From Elusimicrobia bacterium CG1_02_56_21 (GTDB lineage Bacteria; Elusimicrobiota; Elusimicrobia; Elusimicrobiales; UBA9959), in NCBI GenBank assembly GCA_001871115.1, contig MNUR01000046.1, positions 13,299 to 77,298 on the forward strand: a DNA stretch of 64,000 bases, given 5' to 3'. Shown piece by piece: positions 12,527 through 63,091 of the stretch. Positions within the stretch are counted from its first letter, which is position 1; every line of letters starts with the position of its first letter. The notes below the pieces were generated by a model. The model was not told where the DNA came from and searched no databases. It saw only the letters and a program-made list of their open reading frames with translations. The translations under genes were made by a program, and so were the position numbers.

Positions 12527-12943
12527 CTAAATCTCGTCGCGGCTGATAAACTGGGTCTTTACCGGCAGTTTGTGCCCTGCGCGGGTAAAGGCTTCTTTGG
12601 CGGTCGCAAGGTCAAGACCTTCGACTTCAAAAAGGATCCTGCCCGGCCTGACCACGGCTACCCAATATTCCGGCGCGCCCTTACCCTTACCCATGCGGGT
12701 TTCAGCAGGGTGCTTGGTGATGGCTTTATCCGGGAATATCCTTATCCAGATCTTGCCTTTCTTGCGAAGGTAGCGCACGATGCATACGCGGCAGGCCTCT
12801 ATCTGGCGCGCCGTTATCCAGCGCGGCTCAAGGGTCTTCAGGCCGTATTCACCGAAAGCGAGCGTGAAGCCGCTCTTCGCCATGCCCTTAATACGCTGGG
12901 CTGTATGCGTTTTGCGGTGTTTTACTCTCTTAGGCATTAACAT
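12527..12943 (-). CDS. rplP: 50S ribosomal protein L16 (uL16)
   Basis: 138 aa. '[11 protein letters not shown]'. Confidence 0.95.
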
Positions 12944-12967
12944 AGTTCTTGCTCCTTAAAAAAACTC

Positions 12968-13708
12968 TTAAGCGCCGGGGTTTGCGTCCCTGCGGGCCTG
13001 CGCCGACTCGTCCATGACCGGGATTTCGGTAGGGTTCTCGGCTTCCATCTTAATGAGCTGCTCGCGCAGTTCGCGGGGGGTCTTCGCAAAGAACAGTTTC
13101 TTGAAGATCCAGACCTTGATGCCGATCTTGCCCATGCTGGTATTGGCTTCGGTCAGGCCGTAATCGATATCGGCTGAGATGGTCTGCAGCGGCACGCGGC
13201 CTTTGCGGAACCACTCGCGGCGGGCGATCTCGGCGCCGCCGAGGCGGCCTGAAGCCATAACCTTTATACCAAGCGCCCCGGAGCCCATCGTGCGCTCCAT
13301 CGCGCGCTTTATGGCGCGCTTGAAGGAGATGCGCTTTTCGAGCTGCTGCGCCACCGACTGGCCGACCAGGCGGGGGTCAAGCTCGGGGACCTTTATCTCC
13401 GAGACATTGAGGTAAACTTTGCGGCGGGTGAGGCGCTCTATATCTTTCTTAAGATTCTCTATGTCGGCGCCCTTGCGGCCTATAACCACTCCCGGACGGG
13501 CGGTGTGTATAGTAACCTTCAGGTAGGCGCCGGCGCGTTCGATGTCCACCCAGCTGACGGAGGCCATAGCGAACCTTTCGGTTACCATAAGCCTTATTTC
13601 GAAATCTTCACGGATCAGTTCCGGCATCTTCTTGGGAGAGAACCAGCGGGACTGCCAGTCCTGGATGTAGCCGAGCCTTAAGCCCCTGGGATGTATTTTT
13701 TGACCCAT
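12968..13708 (-). CDS. rpsC: 30S ribosomal protein S3 (uS3)
   Basis: Start moved to ATG 13708 ([13 protein letters not shown]), 1 nt after the rplV stop. KH domain present. Confidence 0.94.
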
Positions 13709-17770: not shown

Positions 17771-17860
17771 ATAGCTGACTATATGTATTATACAAATCAG
17801 AAACTTCTCCGCATAGAAATAAAAACTGCCGGGCGGTTCTCAGGCGGGCCGGCTTAGCCA

Positions 17861-18024
17861 GGAGCCTGTCCGACATAGGCAATTTCGCCTGCAATTGCGC
17901 TTTTGTCCTGCGCCTTCGCACCGCTCAACTCACAATTTCCGTCGAGGGTGCTCGTCTCGCGGCGCTTCAGCTCGGCTCCAAAACAGACAATTTCTTCATG
18001 AAAGCCTTATGCCGGACAGGCTCC
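17861..18024 (+). mobile_element. MITE-like element, copy 1 (~164 bp, ~20-bp terminal inverted repeats)
   Basis: Left end is GGAGCCTGTCCGACATAGGC and right end is GCCTTATGCCGGACAGGCTCC, which are reverse complements. Full-length homologs lie at 23481-23645 and, inverted, at 57511-57674. Confidence 0.85.
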
Positions 18025-19358
18025 TAGAGTTTTATCCGCAGCCCGTCCCAGGCCGCAAAACATTCCGTTTTTACCCCATCCCGCACAAGCAGCTCCCGGC
18101 AGTATTTAATATTGGCGTCCATCATATCGTCAGTATGGCTCGGATCGTGGTGGAAGATAGCCATGCGCGATACCCCGGAGGCTCCCGCGAACTTCACGGC
18201 ATCGTCGTAGGTCCCATGCCCCCACCCTTTCCGGGAGGCATATTCCTGCTCGGTATACTGGGCCTCCATGATCAGGAGGTCGCTGCCCCTGGCGAAATTT
18301 ACTATCGCGGCGTCCTGGCGGCGAGCCATTTCGCTGTCTCCGCCCAATTTGGCGAAACCTTCATGGTCGCTTATATAAGTTATTACCTTTCCCTGGGCCT
18401 CTACCCGGAAGCCTATGCAGACCCCCGGATGATTCAGGTGCTGAAAGCTTACCTTTGCCGCTCCTATATCCACCGGCCCCTCCAGTTCGACGAAGCTCAG
18501 CTTGCTGGCCAGGTTGGAGAGCGGCACGGGGAAATAATCCAGAGCCATAGAATCGCTGAAGATCCGGTGCAGGCTGCTGCGGGCCCCGCGCACGCTGTAA
18601 ACGGTAAAAGTGTTCCGCGGATTATACAGCGGGGTAAAGAAAGGGAACCCCTGTATATGGTCCCAGTGGGTGTGCCCTACAAAAATATGGCCCGCTATTG
18701 GACGGCCCGGAAACTCGGCAGCGAGCTCCACCCCGAGCTCGCGCAGGCCCGTGCCGCAGTCTATAATAACAGGGATATCCCCGATACGTATCTCGGTACA
18801 GAGCGTGTTCCCGCCGTATCTAACGTTTTTAAGTCCGCCTGTGGGACAGGAACCGCGCGTGCCCCAGAAACGCACGGAGACAGGCAGCGGGACTTCAGAT
18901 TTAACAGGCGAAGGAAGAGAAGAGGACCGGTTGGTAACCGGGGGGCCTTCCGGAGCAGGGGGCGGCTGCGGCCCGGCTGCGGGCGCGGAGGATAAAATTT
19001 TCCTGACCTTGTCCTGTATTTCCCCTATGGAGAAGGGCTTTACTATATACTCGTCCGCTCCGGCGGCAATGGCCTGGGCCTTGTCGGCGGCATAAGGCTT
19101 TGAAGACGCCACTATGATCTTAACGCCGCTCAGCCCTTCGGGGCTCCTGAGGAGCCTGCACAGTTCATAACCGTGCATGCGCGGCATCATCAGGTCAGTG
19201 ATCACCAGGTCAGGACGCCAGTCCTGGGCTTTTTCCCACCCGTCCTGCCCGTCGCAGGCCTGCATCATTTCATACTCTTCGGAAAGCACGTCTACGGCAA
19301 GGTCCCGTATCACTTCGTCGTCGTCCACCACAAGGATACGCTTCTTAATTTCGGCCAT
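18024..19358 (-). CDS. Response-regulator receiver domain fused to an MBL-fold metallo-hydrolase
   Basis: 444 aa. N-terminal REC ('ILVVDDDEVIRD...DLVITDLMMPRMHG...KP'), a Pro-rich linker, then an MBL motif 'HTHWDHIQG'. Confidence 0.85.
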   Translation of the reverse strand: MAEIKKRILVVDDDEVIRDLAVDVLSEEYEMMQACDGQDGWEKAQDWRPDLVITDLMMPRMHGYELCRLLRSPEGLSGVKIIVASSKPYAADKAQAIAAGADEYIVKPFSIGEIQDKVRKILSSAPAAGPQPPPAPEGPPVTNRSSSLPSPVKSEVPLPVSVRFWGTRGSCPTGGLKNVRYGGNTLCTEIRIGDIPVIIDCGTGLRELGVELAAEFPGRPIAGHIFVGHTHWDHIQGFPFFTPLYNPRNTFTVYSVRGARSSLHRIFSDSMALDYFPVPLSNLASKLSFVELEGPVDIGAAKVSFQHLNHPGVCIGFRVEAQGKVITYISDHEGFAKLGGDSEMARRQDAAIVNFARGSDLLIMEAQYTEQEYASRKGWGHGTYDDAVKFAGASGVSRMAIFHHDPSHTDDMMDANIKYCRELLVRDGVKTECFAAWDGLRIKL

Positions 19359-23417: not shown

Positions 23418-23480
23418 TTTACTTCTTTTGACTCGGGGCTGCAATAAACAAAACCCGCGGAAAGCGGGGAGCCCGCCCTA

Positions 23481-23645
23481 AGAGCCTGTCCGACATAGGC
23501 AATTTCACCTGCAGTTGCCGCTTTTGTCCTGCGCCTTCGCGCCGCTCAACTCACAATTTCCGTCGAGGGTGCTCGTCTCGCAGCGCTTCGGCCCGGCTCC
23601 AAAACAGACATTTTCTTCATGAAAACCTTATGCCGGACAGGCTCC
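23481..23645 (+). mobile_element. MITE-like element, copy 2
   Basis: Same orientation as copy 1. My manual alignment over ~165 bp shows about ten mismatches or indels. Flanked by TA on both sides. Confidence 0.85.
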
Positions 23646-24328
23646 TAAAGCCCGGCCTCCAGGGAATCTTTCATACGGATGAGAAGCCTGACTGTTTTCT
23701 CAAGCAGCGGCCGGGGCAGGGCCGCCTTCCCGGCGGTTTTCACCCCATGGGCGGGCGCAGCGCCCGCCAGAAGTTTAGAAGCCGGAAACTCGGCGGCTAC
23801 TCTTTCGGTATTGAAACCGGCGTCTATATAGTCCGCTCCCAGGGATAAAAGCTCGGCCGCTATGCGCCCAGGCTCTCCTTTGGGCATTTCGGTAACGGCC
23901 CCTTTACGGGCGTTCAGTTCAAAAGAACCTTCCGGCTCCTCTTCCAGCTCTATCTCCACCGTAACCGTATCGTCCGAATACATATCGGCGGTGAATTCCA
24001 CCCCGTCTACCGTGTTTATTCCCGGCTGCTCAAGAAAATAATTAAAACCGTCCTTGTTTTCAGCGCCGGGTCCCCGGGCTCCCTGCGGCCGTGAAGGCGA
24101 CGCAGGGCCGAAATCCCGGGGCATCCCTATCACCGGCTCGCTGGCCCGCCTTAAAAAAAGAATTATCACTATGGCCGCCGCCAGGGCTCCCAGCCAGAGT
24201 TTCAGCTCCTCCTTGCTCTCCCGAGGGGTTTTGGTGCTGTCCCCTGCAGCCTGTATAACCTGCCCCGCTGCGCAGACAGGCAAAGAATTTGCTGCTAAAA
24301 AGAAAGCCAGAAATGCGGCTTTGAACAT
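23645..24328 (-). CDS. Secreted hypothetical protein
   Basis: 227 aa. N-terminal signal peptide 'MFKAAFLAFFLAANSLPVCAAG'. No recognisable domain. Confidence 0.5.
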   Translation of the reverse strand: MFKAAFLAFFLAANSLPVCAAGQVIQAAGDSTKTPRESKEELKLWLGALAAAIVIILFLRRASEPVIGMPRDFGPASPSRPQGARGPGAENKDGFNYFLEQPGINTVDGVEFTADMYSDDTVTVEIELEEEPEGSFELNARKGAVTEMPKGEPGRIAAELLSLGADYIDAGFNTERVAAEFPASKLLAGAAPAHGVKTAGKAALPRPLLEKTVRLLIRMKDSLEAGL

Positions 24329-24390
24329 AGTTCGCTCCTGCCGGTCAGGCTGCCCGGAATACCGCCGGAAATACTTATGAGTATCCGGTT

Positions 24391-24399
24391 ATTCCACCA
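24391..24399 (-). promoter_or_regulatory. -10 element TGGTGGAAT after a T-tract
   Basis: Minus-sense GTTTTTGTTTTGGTGGAAT, about 60 nt upstream of ATG 24328. Confidence 0.4.
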
Positions 24400-24469
24400 A
24401 AACAAAAACGGCCGGTTCGCTCCGGAGGTTCCTGTATGTTTTAACCACCGGCCAGCGTCTAAACTTCTG

Positions 24470-34630: not shown

Positions 34631-34672
34631 AGGTATTTCACACTCTCGAGACCCTTGTTTTTTCCCTGCTAT

Positions 34673-34681
34673 ATTCTACCA
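34673..34681 (-). promoter_or_regulatory. Extended -10 TGGTAGAAT
   Basis: Minus-sense GGGTTTTGGTAGAATATAG, about 43 nt upstream of ATG 34630. Confidence 0.45.
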
Positions 34682-34777
34682 AAACCCGGCAAAGCAGCCC
34701 CTCCGGCCCCTGAGGCCTGCTCCCGGGAGACGGCCGAATTCACCCCAAAAAGGCCCCAGGCCAATAATAACTCACTA

Positions 34778-36906: not shown

Positions 36907-37443
36907 CTAGTTGATATCATGGAACGCCTTGGGATATTCAATTTCGCCGCTGACATCTTTCAAAGCGTTCCGGGCCAGTTCCAGCACCATGAAGACCTCC
37001 TCAGGGGCTTCGAACGGAAGTTTAAGGCCTTTTCCCCCGGCTGCGACAAAACCGAAGCGCGGGTAATATTCAGGGTGTCCTACCACCACCACTATTTTAT
37101 GCCCTGATTTAACGGACTCTTCCAATCCCTTTTTTACGAGCGCCGTCCCTATCCCCCGGTTCTGCAATTCAGGCAGCACCGACATCGGCGCCAGCGCCAG
37201 GGCCGGAACGGCGGTTTGCGGACTCTTGATCCTGACCGGCGTAAAAAGGATATGCCCGACCACCACCCCGTCCTTTACCGCCACCATAGAAAGGGCAGGG
37301 ATAAAACAGGAGGATTCGCGCACAGCGTCTATCAGCTTGGACTCGTTCTTTCCTTTAAAAGCTTTTTTATTCAATTTGCGGATAGCGTCAAAGTCGCTTT
37401 TTAGCTCGGCGCGAATGATGACTGCGGATGATGAATTTTTCAT
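36907..37443 (-). CDS. GNAT family N-acetyltransferase
   Basis: 178 aa. 'LPELQNRGIGTALV' acetyl-CoA motif A and 'YYPRFGF'. Confidence 0.88.
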   Translation of the reverse strand: MKNSSSAVIIRAELKSDFDAIRKLNKKAFKGKNESKLIDAVRESSCFIPALSMVAVKDGVVVGHILFTPVRIKSPQTAVPALALAPMSVLPELQNRGIGTALVKKGLEESVKSGHKIVVVVGHPEYYPRFGFVAAGGKGLKLPFEAPEEVFMVLELARNALKDVSGEIEYPKAFHDIN

Positions 37444-44611: not shown

Positions 44612-44664
44612 ATCTCAATCCGTTGCCGCTAAGTCCGCACCTCCGCAGACCCGGCCTCTGGAAT

Positions 44665-44673
44665 ATTCTAGCA
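44665..44673 (-). promoter_or_regulatory. Extended -10 TGCTAGAAT
   Basis: Minus-sense GCGTTTTGCTAGAATATT, about 54 nt upstream of ATG 44611. Confidence 0.45.
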
Positions 44674-44731
44674 AAACGCCCCGGCGCATTTTCCCTGCTG
44701 CCCCCTTATGCTGTTTTGCTAAACTTTTAAT

Positions 44732-46455: not shown

Positions 46456-46503
46456 ATAACTTTAACCGGGTGACCTGCCGGATTATCGCAGCCTGCTGAA
46501 AAT

Positions 46504-46512
46504 ATTCTAGCA
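46504..46512 (-). promoter_or_regulatory. Extended -10 TGCTAGAAT
   Basis: Minus-sense CCCATTTGCTAGAATATT, about 49 nt upstream of ATG 46455. Confidence 0.45.
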
Positions 46513-46606
46513 AATGGGAAATAACCCTTCTTCTGCCCGTAGAAGCGGCCCGGGAAAGGCGCCTCCCGCTTTTTGAACCCGGGCTTATTAAGGTAAACTT
46601 GTATAT

Positions 46607-48475: not shown

Positions 48476-48545
48476 AATTTTCTCTCCTGTCCCGGCTTCG
48501 GAAAAGCGACGGGCAAATACAAATACGCCCGCAACCCGCTACTTT

Positions 48546-48554
48546 ATTCTAGCA
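48546..48554 (-). promoter_or_regulatory. Extended -10 TGCTAGAAT
   Basis: Minus-sense GTTCTTTTGCTAGAATAAAG, about 70 nt upstream of ATG 48475. Confidence 0.45.
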
Positions 48555-48588
48555 AAAGAACTATTGAGCAGACCGCCCGGTTCCCCCA

Positions 48589-56860: not shown

Positions 56861-57487
56861 CTATCCCCTAGGCGCTCTTTCATCCAGGTGGGACGCCTCA
56901 CCGAACATTTTATAGAACGCTTCTCGCCTGTCCCTCGGCAGTATCTTTATTAGTTTCACAAGTGCTCCCCAGTTTTCGGTCATCTCGAAACCGGAGATAT
57001 CAAAACCTTGTTTGAGTTTAAGTATTAGGATTCTTCGGTTCGTTGGCTTATGATGACTTGAGATACGCTCATACCCAAGCTCTCTCAAATAGCGCATGAA
57101 AGTTTCAGAGAATGCAGTGAACAGCCCCCGATTCTGGTATTCCGGGAGGATTCCGCTATTCCACATATAAAATGTCTGATGATCTTCCGCTTCGCCCATA
57201 TGCCAGCCAATAGGTTGCCCTTTCGGATTTAAAAACAAAAACCACTCATGATGAATAACCGAGTAGAGTTTTCGCAGCGGCGCCATCTGCTGCCGGCGCT
57301 CTGGGGAAACCCTGAAACATAAGCAGTCATCCCCGGGCGGGAAGACTTTATTGTACGCCTTGCCGAGAAAGTCATAAACCTCTTTCGCGTCAGAAGGCCT
57401 TATGCAAAACCCCTCTTTTGTCTTCAAAGGAAAATATTTAGTCCTGATCCCGCTAATATTTAGTTTCTTGGCAATTGTTTTGTTCAT
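56861..57487 (-). CDS. GNAT-like N-acetyltransferase
   Basis: Start at 'MNKTIAKKLN' (SD GGAGA). 'PEYQNRGLFTAFSETFMRYLRELGYERI'. The track's longer start runs into the MITE. Confidence 0.6.
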   Translation of the reverse strand: MNKTIAKKLNISGIRTKYFPLKTKEGFCIRPSDAKEVYDFLGKAYNKVFPPGDDCLCFRVSPERRQQMAPLRKLYSVIHHEWFLFLNPKGQPIGWHMGEAEDHQTFYMWNSGILPEYQNRGLFTAFSETFMRYLRELGYERISSHHKPTNRRILILKLKQGFDISGFEMTENWGALVKLIKILPRDRREAFYKMFGEASHLDERAPRG

Positions 57488-57510
57488 AATTCTCCATTTA
57501 CTAATCCCTA

Positions 57511-57674
57511 GGAGCCTGTCCGACATAAGGCTTTCATGGCGAAATTGACGATTTAAAGCCGAGCCGAAGCGCCGCGAAACGAGCACCCTCGACGGAGGTT
57601 GTAAGTTGAGCGGCGCAAAGGCGCAGGCAAAAAGCGGCAATTGCAGACGAAATTGCTTATGTCGGACAGGCTCC
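57511..57674 (-). mobile_element. MITE-like element, copy 3 (inverted relative to copies 1 and 2, more diverged)
   Basis: GGAGCCTGTCCGACATAAGG...CTTATGTCGGACAGGCTCC. The internal sequence aligns to the reverse complement of copy 1. Confidence 0.85.
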
Positions 57675-57753: not shown

Positions 57754-58506
57754 CTATTCCTCTACAACTACGATATTCCACATCCCAGGATTAGGGTTCT
57801 TAATAAGAACCGCGCTTTGTCCGCGCCAGAGAATTGTGGATTTTATATTTGCCAGCTTCTTGAAGCGCTCAAGGCTTTTACATTTAATTACTACAGCGGC
57901 GACCTTGGTTGACCGGCCTGATTCTATGAAGAGCCGTATCCCTCCTAAACTAACGTCTTTCCCATTAAGACTCTTGCCAAAGACTTTTTCAAGTTTCGGC
58001 CCGTCAGAACCTCTCACGATAAGCTCTAAACCGGCGATAGTATGCGCCGTGTTCGGGTGAGGCGGAGGCGTCACGCGTTTTTTCGTGGGATGGGGCTCGT
58101 ATTCGGTGAACCACAGGTAGATGTTCTTAAATTTGGGGCTTAAAAATGTCAGAAAGTTCCAGCCGGGAAGAGCGCTTTTGCTGTCTTTCTTCCAGGCGTA
58201 GTTCTTATGGATGTACTTGGCCTTTATGTCCTTCCGGGCTTTGAGGGCCCCGAAGTACCGCTTAAGCGGCCCTGTGTACCGCAGTGAAACGCCGGGCTTA
58301 TCGATGGGTTCCCCGCCCTTTCCTACCCGGACAAATTCCAGGTAAACGCGCCCGGAACCGTGCTTGAACATTATGAAGCGGCAGAATTGCTTTCCCGGAT
58401 GCTCGACCTCGTTTTCTGACAAAACGAAACCGGATTTCCCCAGGGCCTTGAAAAACCCGTGCCCGGCATCTTCCGTATAGCTATGATCGAAGTTTATGGA
58501 TTTCAT
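57754..58506 (-). CDS. Glyoxalase-like-domain (VOC superfamily) protein
   Basis: 250 aa. 'INFDHSYTEDAGHGFFKALGKSGF...VYLEFVRV' and 'HPNTAHTIAGLELIV' resemble the PF13468-type layout. Confidence 0.45.
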   Translation of the reverse strand: MKSINFDHSYTEDAGHGFFKALGKSGFVLSENEVEHPGKQFCRFIMFKHGSGRVYLEFVRVGKGGEPIDKPGVSLRYTGPLKRYFGALKARKDIKAKYIHKNYAWKKDSKSALPGWNFLTFLSPKFKNIYLWFTEYEPHPTKKRVTPPPHPNTAHTIAGLELIVRGSDGPKLEKVFGKSLNGKDVSLGGIRLFIESGRSTKVAAVVIKCKSLERFKKLANIKSTILWRGQSAVLIKNPNPGMWNIVVVEE

Positions 58507-59922: not shown

Positions 59923-59929
59923 CCCCCTT

Positions 59930-59938
59930 ATTCTACCA
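59930..59938 (-). promoter_or_regulatory. Extended -10 TGGTAGAAT, 7 nt upstream of ATG 59922
   Basis: Minus-sense GGTTTTGTTTTGGTAGAATAAGGGGGATG. Confidence 0.45.
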
Positions 59939-59966
59939 AAACAAAACCGGCGGGATTCCCCGGCGG
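59938..59966 (-). terminator. GC-hairpin family copy H10
   Basis: CCGGCGGG-ATTC-CCCGGCGG plus TTTTGTTTTGG in minus sense, 21 nt after the 59987 gene stop. Confidence 0.7.
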
Positions 59967-62446: not shown

Positions 62447-63091
62447 TTACCGCGCGGCACCGGAGGCTTCGGCCCAGATTCCCTGTATGCCTTCTGGGAA
62501 ATTGCGGCGCAATCCCTCCATCTCGCCCGGCGAGACATGGCAATCTAGGACCTTGATGATCCCCCGCGTGACGCGCATGGGCTCCATACCTTTAGGCAGC
62601 TCCACAGCCACCCGGTCGAGGAACTCTTCAAGAGTGTGCATTCTCTCCGGCTTGTTCTTCGGCGTCCAGCCCGAATAGTACATCCCCATCATCAGCACCG
62701 GCAGCTGCGCCGCGAACTCCGCCGCCTCGTTGACCGGCAGCCTGTCCCGCATCGCGTGCAGCACGGCCCTCATGGCCCTGTATGCGTCGTTGAGGTTATT
62801 AAGCTGCAGCTCCGTTTCAACGCCTTTAAGCCATTCCCTGGTCTTAGCCATGGCATGGTCGTACATATGGGCGTTCGAGGACTCTGTAATGGTGTTGGGC
62901 CACTCCCTCGTTATCCGCTCAGCCTCCTGCCAGTCACCCTGTGACGTACCCGGCTTGGCGCCCCTTTTCATATAAATATCCCGCGCTACCTGCCTGGTGG
63001 CCTCATCAAGGTCCCCGCTGCGCAGATAGTCTGCGTAAGCCTGCGTGTAACAATGCCTGGCCGTGGTACTTATCTTCATATTTTTATTCAT
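62447..63091 (-). CDS. DUF2934-like N-terminus plus DUF2267 domain protein
   Basis: Start at 'MNKNMKIS' (SD GGGGGG). 'RDIYMKRGAKPGTSQGDWQEAE' and 'LPVNEAAEFAAQLPVLMMGMYYSGWTPKNKPERMHTLEEFLDRVA'. Confidence 0.7.
   Translation of the reverse strand: MNKNMKISTTARHCYTQAYADYLRSGDLDEATRQVARDIYMKRGAKPGTSQGDWQEAERITREWPNTITESSNAHMYDHAMAKTREWLKGVETELQLNNLNDAYRAMRAVLHAMRDRLPVNEAAEFAAQLPVLMMGMYYSGWTPKNKPERMHTLEEFLDRVAVELPKGMEPMRVTRGIIKVLDCHVSPGEMEGLRRNFPEGIQGIWAEASGAAR

Follow-up and report, generated by a model that had tools for sequence, protein, structure and literature searches.

The 64-kb stretch of DNA considered here (the window) is chromosomal, with a G+C content of 54.7% and genes that include those for ribosomal proteins, aspartokinase and CstA. 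Within it lie three copies of a repeat of about 164 bp with matching inverted ends. What kind of element is this, what moved it and why do its copies adjoin the ends of genes? We consider it very probable that the repeats are a non-coding MITE family of groundwater Elusimicrobia, with the same termini as an element of the IS1182 family, here termed IS-A, and inserted at CTAG.

Copy 1 (17861..18024, plus strand, 164 bp) sets the standard orientation, with the AAGCAAT-type end at the left. Copy 2 (23481..23645, plus strand, 165 bp) is oriented in the same way and copy 3 (57511..57674, minus strand, 164 bp) is inverted. A previous interpretation made from the letters alone (the sequence-only reading) had placed three full-length homologues of about 164 bp at these positions, and all three are present there. 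The copies share a mean column identity of 92% over their full length when aligned with MAFFT. In pairwise BLASTN comparisons over about 166 nt, copies 1 and 2 are 94.6% identical, copies 1 and 3 88.1% and copies 2 and 3 86.1%. About nine differences separate copies 1 and 2, where some ten had been counted, and copy 3 is the more diverged, as had been supposed.

Inverted repeats of the form GGAGCCTGTCCGRCATAAG (5' to 3') are present at all six termini of the three copies. In copy 1 the left terminal inverted repeat is GGAGCCTGTCCGACATAGGC (17861..17880, plus strand) and the right is GGAGCCTGTCCGGCATAAGG when read on the minus strand (18005..18024). The sequence-only reading had described repeats of about 20 bp; the repeats are indeed found at the six termini, but the length common to the MITE copies is about 19-24 nt and the first base of copy 2 is A, not G. 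With no more than one mismatch the terminal motif GGAGCCTGTCCGRCATA occurs at six sites in the window, which are exactly the six MITE termini. A seventh match, at 62737, carries three mismatches and is isolated. These seven matches compare with a mean of 0.30 in shuffled sequences, and none of 100 shuffles reached seven. An nhmmer profile built from copies 1-3 detected no fourth copy in the window.

The absence of coding capacity that had been ascribed to the repeats is borne out. No Pfam-bearing ORF is found in the copies of 164-165 bp, and the one stop-free reading frame that runs through the MITE is inherited among the copies and is no evidence of coding. An in-frame coding insert resembling the Rickettsia palindromic elements was considered and rejected: the element together with its duplication measures 167 bp, which is not a multiple of 3, and the copies are intergenic or end ORFs via TAG or TAA, which speaks against a translated insert of that type.

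The flanks identify the target. The great majority of copies conform to the pattern cTA-GGAGCC...GGCTCC-TAg, in which the hyphens mark the element boundaries. We found at least 93 elements with paired termini; in the 91 for which both flanks fall within the locus these are TA/TA in 58 and CTAG/CTAG in 44, counts that are biased because the metagenome pattern required TA on one side, and the genome scan, which was free of this restriction, shows the same picture. The informative exceptions are a TG/TG pair (L061) and a CA/CA pair (L091). Since the two members of each pair match, the flanking dinucleotide results from a true duplication of the target and does not belong to the element. Of the three window copies, copy 2 alone is flanked by a perfect pair, TA/TA, or CTAA/CTAA in a 4-bp reading. 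Copy 1 is flanked by CA, a decayed TA, on the left (17859..17860) and by TA on the right (18025..18026), and copy 3 by TA and AA (CTA- and -AAG).

At a CTAG target, duplications of 2 bp (TA) and of 4 bp (CTAG) give identical sequences. At least 11 termini have outer flank bases other than C or G, and three deviate at the inner bases, a difference that favours a 2-bp duplication of TA within a preferred C-TA-G context. Possibly the duplication is instead the 4-bp CTAG, to which the CTAA/CTAA flanks of copy 2 point, as does ISPse1 of Paracoccus, an IS1182-family element of 1653 bp with a 4-bp direct repeat (PMC3281130). ISPse1 is similar in length to IS-A, of about 1.65 kb, and has a transposase of the same family. 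Palindromic targets are reported for some IS1182 members (PMC5678879); our literature searches returned no direct statement on the IS1182 target.

CTAG is scarce in this DNA. The 64-kb window contains 24 occurrences, about ten times fewer than the 244 that base composition predicts, and a Markov model predicts 86. Among the 37 distinct copies that are full-length and have adequate flanks, 17 abut or supply the stop of an ORF of at least 80 codons, either with a terminus at the TAG of the ORF or with a TAA inside the repeat (GGA GCC TGT CCG ACA TAA). At L071, two convergent neighbouring genes stop at the two flanking TAGs. A C-TAG stop is a harmless site because insertion regenerates the stop, and the simplest reading of the siting at gene ends is target preference combined with purifying selection. 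Each element end also recreates CTAG, which leads to the abutting and nested elements observed at L056, L167 and L229. The CTAG at 36907 of the window, where a GNAT gene (36907..37443, minus strand) has its stop codon, looks like an unoccupied target of the kind that the MITE uses.

All three copies in the window occupy gaps between tandem minus-strand genes, as the sequence-only reading had it, and the beginning of copies 1 and 2 coincides exactly with the TAG stop of the minus-strand gene upstream. For copy 1 this gene encodes a response regulator with a metallo-beta-lactamase fold (18024..19358, minus strand), and its stop codon (18024-18026) is made up of the last base of the copy, C, and the flanking TA. 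For copy 2 it is a gene for a product of 227 aa (23645..24328, minus strand), whose TAG (23645..23647) overlaps the last base of the copy. Directly after copy 2 in the direction of transcription there is a terminator-like GC hairpin with a T-run (23454..23468, minus strand; identified by consensus scan only), which places the copy between stop codon and hairpin. This site was the sole yield of promoter and terminator scans.

Copy 3 lies 80 bp downstream of the gene at 57754..58506, and 23 bp separate it from the ATG (57487) of the next gene downstream, which encodes a GNAT acetyltransferase. In public gene calls the latter begins at an ATG within the terminal repeat of copy 3 (57487-57526, minus strand), giving a product of 221 aa. 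The ATG at 57487 has GGAG five bases upstream and gives a product of 208 aa, and judged from these signals it is more likely to be the true start than the ATG in copy 3.

A separate observation concerns a 12-mer, TATTCTAGCAAA, which occurs exactly at 44664-44675, 46503-46514 and 48545-48556 in the window and with one or two mismatches at 12 more sites, for example 24390-24401, 34672-34683 and 59929-59940. The looser pattern TATTCTA[CG][CA]AAA is found 15 times against 4.6 expected, and 14 of these 15 are plus-strand sites. Read as TTTG[GC]TAGAATA, the reverse complement, the pattern resembles an extended -10 promoter, and the sites at 44664, 46503 and 24390 are placed 50-70 bp upstream of minus-strand gene starts. 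The 12-mer is probably a promoter consensus of the window organism.

What, then, moved the repeats? The statement that no transposase is present in the window holds for the family of the partner: tblastn with the partner transposase found no homologue there. A longer element with the same terminal repeats and a transposase had been predicted, and such an element, the 1.66-kb IS-A, has been found. At L147 (717-2385), L175 (426-2085) and L189 (93-1755) the same termini stand 1660-1669 bp apart with CTAG flanks, and each element carries an ORF of 455-469 aa; L261 holds a further 1.66-kb element that agrees in termini and flanks. In L189 the transposase is encoded at 237-1607. With the NCBIfam model NF033551 (IS1182 family transposase), for which the cut-off is 270, the ORF reaches 379-384 bits, and in Pfam it matches DUF772, DDE_Tnp_1 and DDE_Tnp_1_6. 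Partial copies or remnants of IS-A are present at L195, L162, L238, L097, L124 and L144. A scan of viral contigs gave three matches, of which L124 alone is a short IS-A remnant. On that contig (IMG/VR contig IMGVR_UViG_3300021476_000025, to which L144 also belongs) a truncated IS-A at 12797-13074 consists of a terminus and the last 34 or so codons of the transposase.

No IS-A was seen in the genome of the window itself; the copies found come from the same metagenome series and from related MAGs. The sample series of L147 and L189 (Ga0066637, Ga0100379-87) also hold the window's own proteins, and the Elusimicrobiota MAG GCA_037137395.1 contains a complete 1659-bp element with ends GGAGCCCGTCCGGCATAAG and CTAG flanks. 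A search for homologues of IS-A returned thousands of relatives, mostly on contigs of 1.6-2 kb, as is to be expected for collapsed multicopy elements.

The closest annotated relatives of IS-A, at about 50% amino-acid identity, are labelled 'IS1182 family transposase' and reside on plasmids of Bradyrhizobium and Alicyclobacillus (pBsp2S1a of Bradyrhizobium sp. 2S1 and pDSM3922.1 of Alicyclobacillus acidoterrestris). The ends of these plasmid elements are CTAG-GAGCTTGTCTGG and CTAG-GAGCGTGTCCGAG, so that termini and CTAG flanks are as in the MITE. Because such distant annotated members have CTAG-GAGCnTGTC ends, the terminus and the CTAG target are properties of the IS1182 clade to which IS-A belongs. 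The annotated elements are autonomous, whereas the window has the 164-bp derivative only. Beyond about 24 nt, no alignment of the MITE interior with the subterminal sequence of IS-A exceeds those of shuffled sequences (z no higher than 2.3). Derivation of the MITE from IS-A by simple internal deletion is thereby ruled out, and, the interiors being unrelated, the link between the two rests on the termini and the target.

On contig L167 shared TA dinucleotides physically link the right end of IS-A, a MITE and a further element of IS1182 type (IS-B). The IS-B transposase is 35-38% identical to that of IS-A, and the ends of IS-B on this contig are GGAGCCTGAGCAATTAG. In both of its occurrences (L229 107-1876 and L167 38-1808) IS-B has ends GGAGCCTGAGCAATTAGTCGG, and the MITE has only the first 8-9 nt of these in common. 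The insertion point of IS-B is precisely the TA that lies between abutting elements, from which it follows that element ends regenerate the CTAG target.

If the repeats are mobile, sites without them should be found, and the sequence-only reading had called for a comparison of related loci. Orthologues of the response-regulator gene at the copy 1 locus have 72-77% protein identity and preserve the synteny (response regulator, glyoxalase, ribosomal protein L3). The spacer between the response-regulator and glyoxalase genes is 253 bp in the window, with the MITE, as against 97 bp in L262 and 24 bp in L268, and nhmmer found no match to the MITE in either of these loci. The orthologous site of copy 1 is thus empty in two relatives, which stand at 72-77% protein identity and have diverged spacers. 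In L262 the response-regulator gene ends ...CTC-TAG, with CTAG exactly where the window has CTAG-GAGCC, and this stop codon would be the expected unoccupied target. In the same locus (L262 3806-3835) the stop-codon CTAG is followed by GAGCAGCC, matching the first bases of the MITE terminus CTAGGAGC, which may be chance or an old excision footprint. The converse case is provided by L067, where a MITE lies beside an 80%-identical gene and the window has none at that place.

Among the 20-odd contigs of the window's population there is no base-exact filled and empty pair within one species. Exact-protein look-ups of the neighbouring genes showed copies 1-3 to be present in every population contig that spans the site, and an all-against-all search of the fetched loci for empty alleles gave one spurious match, due to another repeat. 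Copy 1 is identical in four other assemblies of the population; window proteins have exact matches in an Elusimicrobia MAG population of the Crystal Geyser/Rifle type (PJA12001.1; Elusimicrobia bacterium CG1_02_56_21; assemblies GCA_002322375.1 and GCA_002793335.1). The copies are fixed in the sampled population, and with 86-95% identity and decayed flanks they look old.

The family extends well beyond the window. In a scan of one genome per species, made with a terminus pattern that had no TA requirement, termini paired about 147 bp apart were found in at least 10 species of Elusimicrobia/Elusimicrobiales MAGs. One MAG, JBAYJD01, has at least 13 MITE loci, and many copies are located at contig ends. 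A metagenome scan added at least 119 further loci, with at least 117 nhmmer profile matches, and many of the contigs are from groundwater. Copies 92-97% identical to those of the window occur at loci with no similarity to its flanks. Outside Elusimicrobia, the matches listed are mostly single 16-mers, apart from some elements with paired termini; taxon labels are those given by the depositors of the MAGs. Solo termini at L018, L019, L052, L060, L085, L097, L106 and L113 have no transposase adjoining them, only housekeeping or toxin-antitoxin genes, and that of L097 is a truncated IS-A end.

Size variants of 55-333 bp retain both termini (55-62, 82, 102, 129, 180-195, 211-267 and 290-333 bp) and have arisen by internal deletion, for example between CAATTTCG repeats in L073, or by insertion. 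Apparent half copies at L059, L071 and L064 were considered as long elements and this was rejected; L059 and L071 are 82-bp variants. These two (L059 2745-2826 and L071 2067-2148) come from different species and extend from a normal left end as far as the apical internal CAGGCTCC, with TAG directly after it. It seems that this internal 8-nt copy of the terminus is used as an alternative right end. Longer variants carry recurrent extra modules (L004 485-751, L158, L200, L174 and L218; L127 1613-1792, L183 and L206; L165, L193 and L061). The modules, such as GGGACCCCTTCCGGGG...GGTTTCCCCTA or GACCGCAGGCGTTTTCC...CTTATCCGTGACC, occupy fixed internal positions, sometimes in both arms, and may be smaller mobile or hairpin modules nested within the MITE.

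Elements with the same termini are also seen under other taxon labels. A 183-bp MITE family from Nitrospirota/Nitrospira MAGs and metagenomes has the same 16-nt termini and an unrelated interior (L028 4502-4684, L075 5006-5188, L112 1311-1491 and L103 6530-6660; also L132, L182, L204, L213, L220 and L235). A Polaribacter MAG contains a 257-bp element with these termini (L100 6081-6337), and a 226-bp element with them is present at L129, L154 and L171. Provided that the MAG bins are clean, MITEs that differ between phyla have been seeded by the same IS1182-type ends.

Every copy is a long imperfect palindrome; copy 3, for example, aligns with its own reverse complement over 172 nt at 67% identity. 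The predicted fold of copy 1 has an energy of -65.8 kcal/mol on the plus strand (z of -4.4 against shuffles) and of -82.3 kcal/mol on the minus strand (z of -6.1). In a consensus fold of 48 distinct copies there are 43 pairs, with 97.3% of the cells paired. Double changes occur in 15 of the 43 pairs, against 5.5 ± 1.4 in shuffles and at most six in slid controls, and with the terminal repeats left out in nine of 23 pairs, against 3.7 ± 1.0. Variants of the apical stem include ACCTC/GAGGT, GGCTC/GAGCC, GGTTC/GAGCC and GTCTC/GAGAA. The events are few and common to subfamilies, and kinship of the sequences inflates the shuffle tests. For this reason we regard the compensatory changes as suggestive of selection on the hairpin, not as proof of it, and a role for the hairpin at the RNA or the DNA level as a minority possibility.

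These folds raise the question of whether the repeats are a structured RNA selected by the host, a 3'-UTR stem-loop that stabilizes or terminates transcripts, in which the transposon features would be historical and which would persist since the hairpin is useful. REP, ERIC and Correia elements have been proposed to persist in this way. The fold of either strand is far more stable than those of shuffles, the excess of double changes survives exclusion of the terminal repeats, and copies 1 and 2 start at a stop codon; copy 2, which precedes a terminator-like hairpin, would lie in a 3' UTR. The distribution of the copies argues the other way. They occur in both orientations, and copy 3 is upstream of a gene; insertion sites are non-orthologous between species. 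The sequence-only reading had named a structured RNA at orthologous positions in distant relatives as the finding that would count against it, and none emerged: Rfam gave no match at the gathering score in the whole window, and the copy 1 spacer lacks the element in two relatives. Covariation of the terminal helix is expected, given that a single transposase has to accommodate both ends. A MITE that is palindromic can keep its symmetry in the absence of an RNA function, and the double changes are the few, subfamily-shared events discussed above. We therefore judge a host-selected RNA to be improbable. The MITE interpretation of the sequence-only reading, by comparison, has stood up on every point on which it could be tested.

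Granted a MITE, its mover might be a transposase of the IS630/Tc1-mariner type, with the IS1182 ends a coincidence or a secondary capture. Elements of that group classically insert at CTAG and duplicate TA. The TA duplication in a CTAG context is what such a transposase predicts, and the greater variability of the outer C and G noted above agrees with it. Among the roughly 240 loci listed, however, there is no IS630-type element with the MITE termini, whereas every long element with MITE ends encodes an IS1182-family transposase and distant annotated IS1182 elements share the CTAG-GAGCnTGTC ends; the chance that an IS630-type transposase is responsible appears very slight. A palindrome of the REP/BIME type, spread by a Y1 (RAYT) transposase, by recombination or by replication slippage in place of a DDE transposase, would agree with the family only in general terms, as a palindromic repeat situated between genes and at their ends. 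A length of 164 bp, terminal inverted repeats of 19-24 bp and a specific duplicated target are unlike REP units of about 35 bp, no RAYT gene turned up, there is a DDE element that matches, and the size variants are internal deletions and insertions that keep both termini. This origin is effectively refuted.

The mechanism that we propose for the IS1182-type MITE is as follows. The IS-A transposase, made elsewhere in the genome, would bind the MITE ends and move the element in trans, and the MITE would integrate into the palindromic CTAG with duplication of TA. CTAG is very rare in the genome and selection would remove insertions inside genes; as a consequence, surviving copies would gather where a gene ends in C-TAG. 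There the duplication would regenerate the stop codon, and the TAA inside the repeat would serve as a stop in a second frame. An element end with its TA recreates CTAG, allowing new elements to insert beside old ones. We can also envisage a further step, in which the MITE was co-opted in Elusimicrobia as a modular 3'-UTR stem-loop acting on transcript stability or termination, C-TAG stops were 'safe havens' in a CTAG-depleted genome and the same termini seeded unrelated MITEs in Nitrospirota and possibly Bacteroidota, but we hold this extension to be doubtful.

The family has counterparts elsewhere. The Correia (NEMIS) elements of Neisseria and the ERIC/IRU elements of enterobacteria are palindromic, MITE-like sequences of 100-160 bp with TA flanks, which adjoin genes and form co-transcribed hairpins. 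As in the Elusimicrobia MITE, internal insertions or deletions produce size variants, and stop codons are provided by some of the copies. We know of no autonomous partner firmly established for Correia or ERIC. They have no sequence relationship to the Elusimicrobia MITE and their hosts belong to another phylum, and for the latter a partner has been found. Stowaway-like MITEs of the IS630/Tc1-mariner type share the TA duplication and the CTAG preference, but the partner here is of the IS1182 family instead. The nearest parallel in that family is formed by the ISMac2-related MITEs of Methanosarcina acetivorans, which are 160 and 169 bp long with inverted repeats of 25-26 bp and, for one of them, a 4-bp direct repeat (PMC3852290). 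Like the window family, these are of 160-169 bp, non-coding and multicopy with an IS1182-family partner. They differ in their archaeal host and unrelated sequence; the Elusimicrobia MITE is linked to its partner by termini and CTAG only, and the covarying hairpin that spans the whole element is a feature of the Elusimicrobia family. A literature search for an earlier description of Elusimicrobia MITEs returned nothing relevant, and although MITEs are a known kind of element it appears that none had been described for Elusimicrobia.

No general concept is changed by this family, which is an ordinary but well-resolved mobile element. Beyond the sequence-only reading, the analysis adds the IS1182 family of the partner, the targeting of CTAG and stop codons and the conserved hairpin of the whole element. 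There is a practical side, in that the family breaks MAG assemblies, with many contigs ending inside a MITE, and misleads gene callers; knowledge of the MITE aids annotation. It also illustrates cleanly that an IS1182 clade can have a defined palindrome, CTAG, as its target. The family could be used as a population marker in groundwater Elusimicrobia. It shows, too, how the combination of a scarce target with stop codons that form part of the element ends restricts the surviving insertions to the ends of genes.
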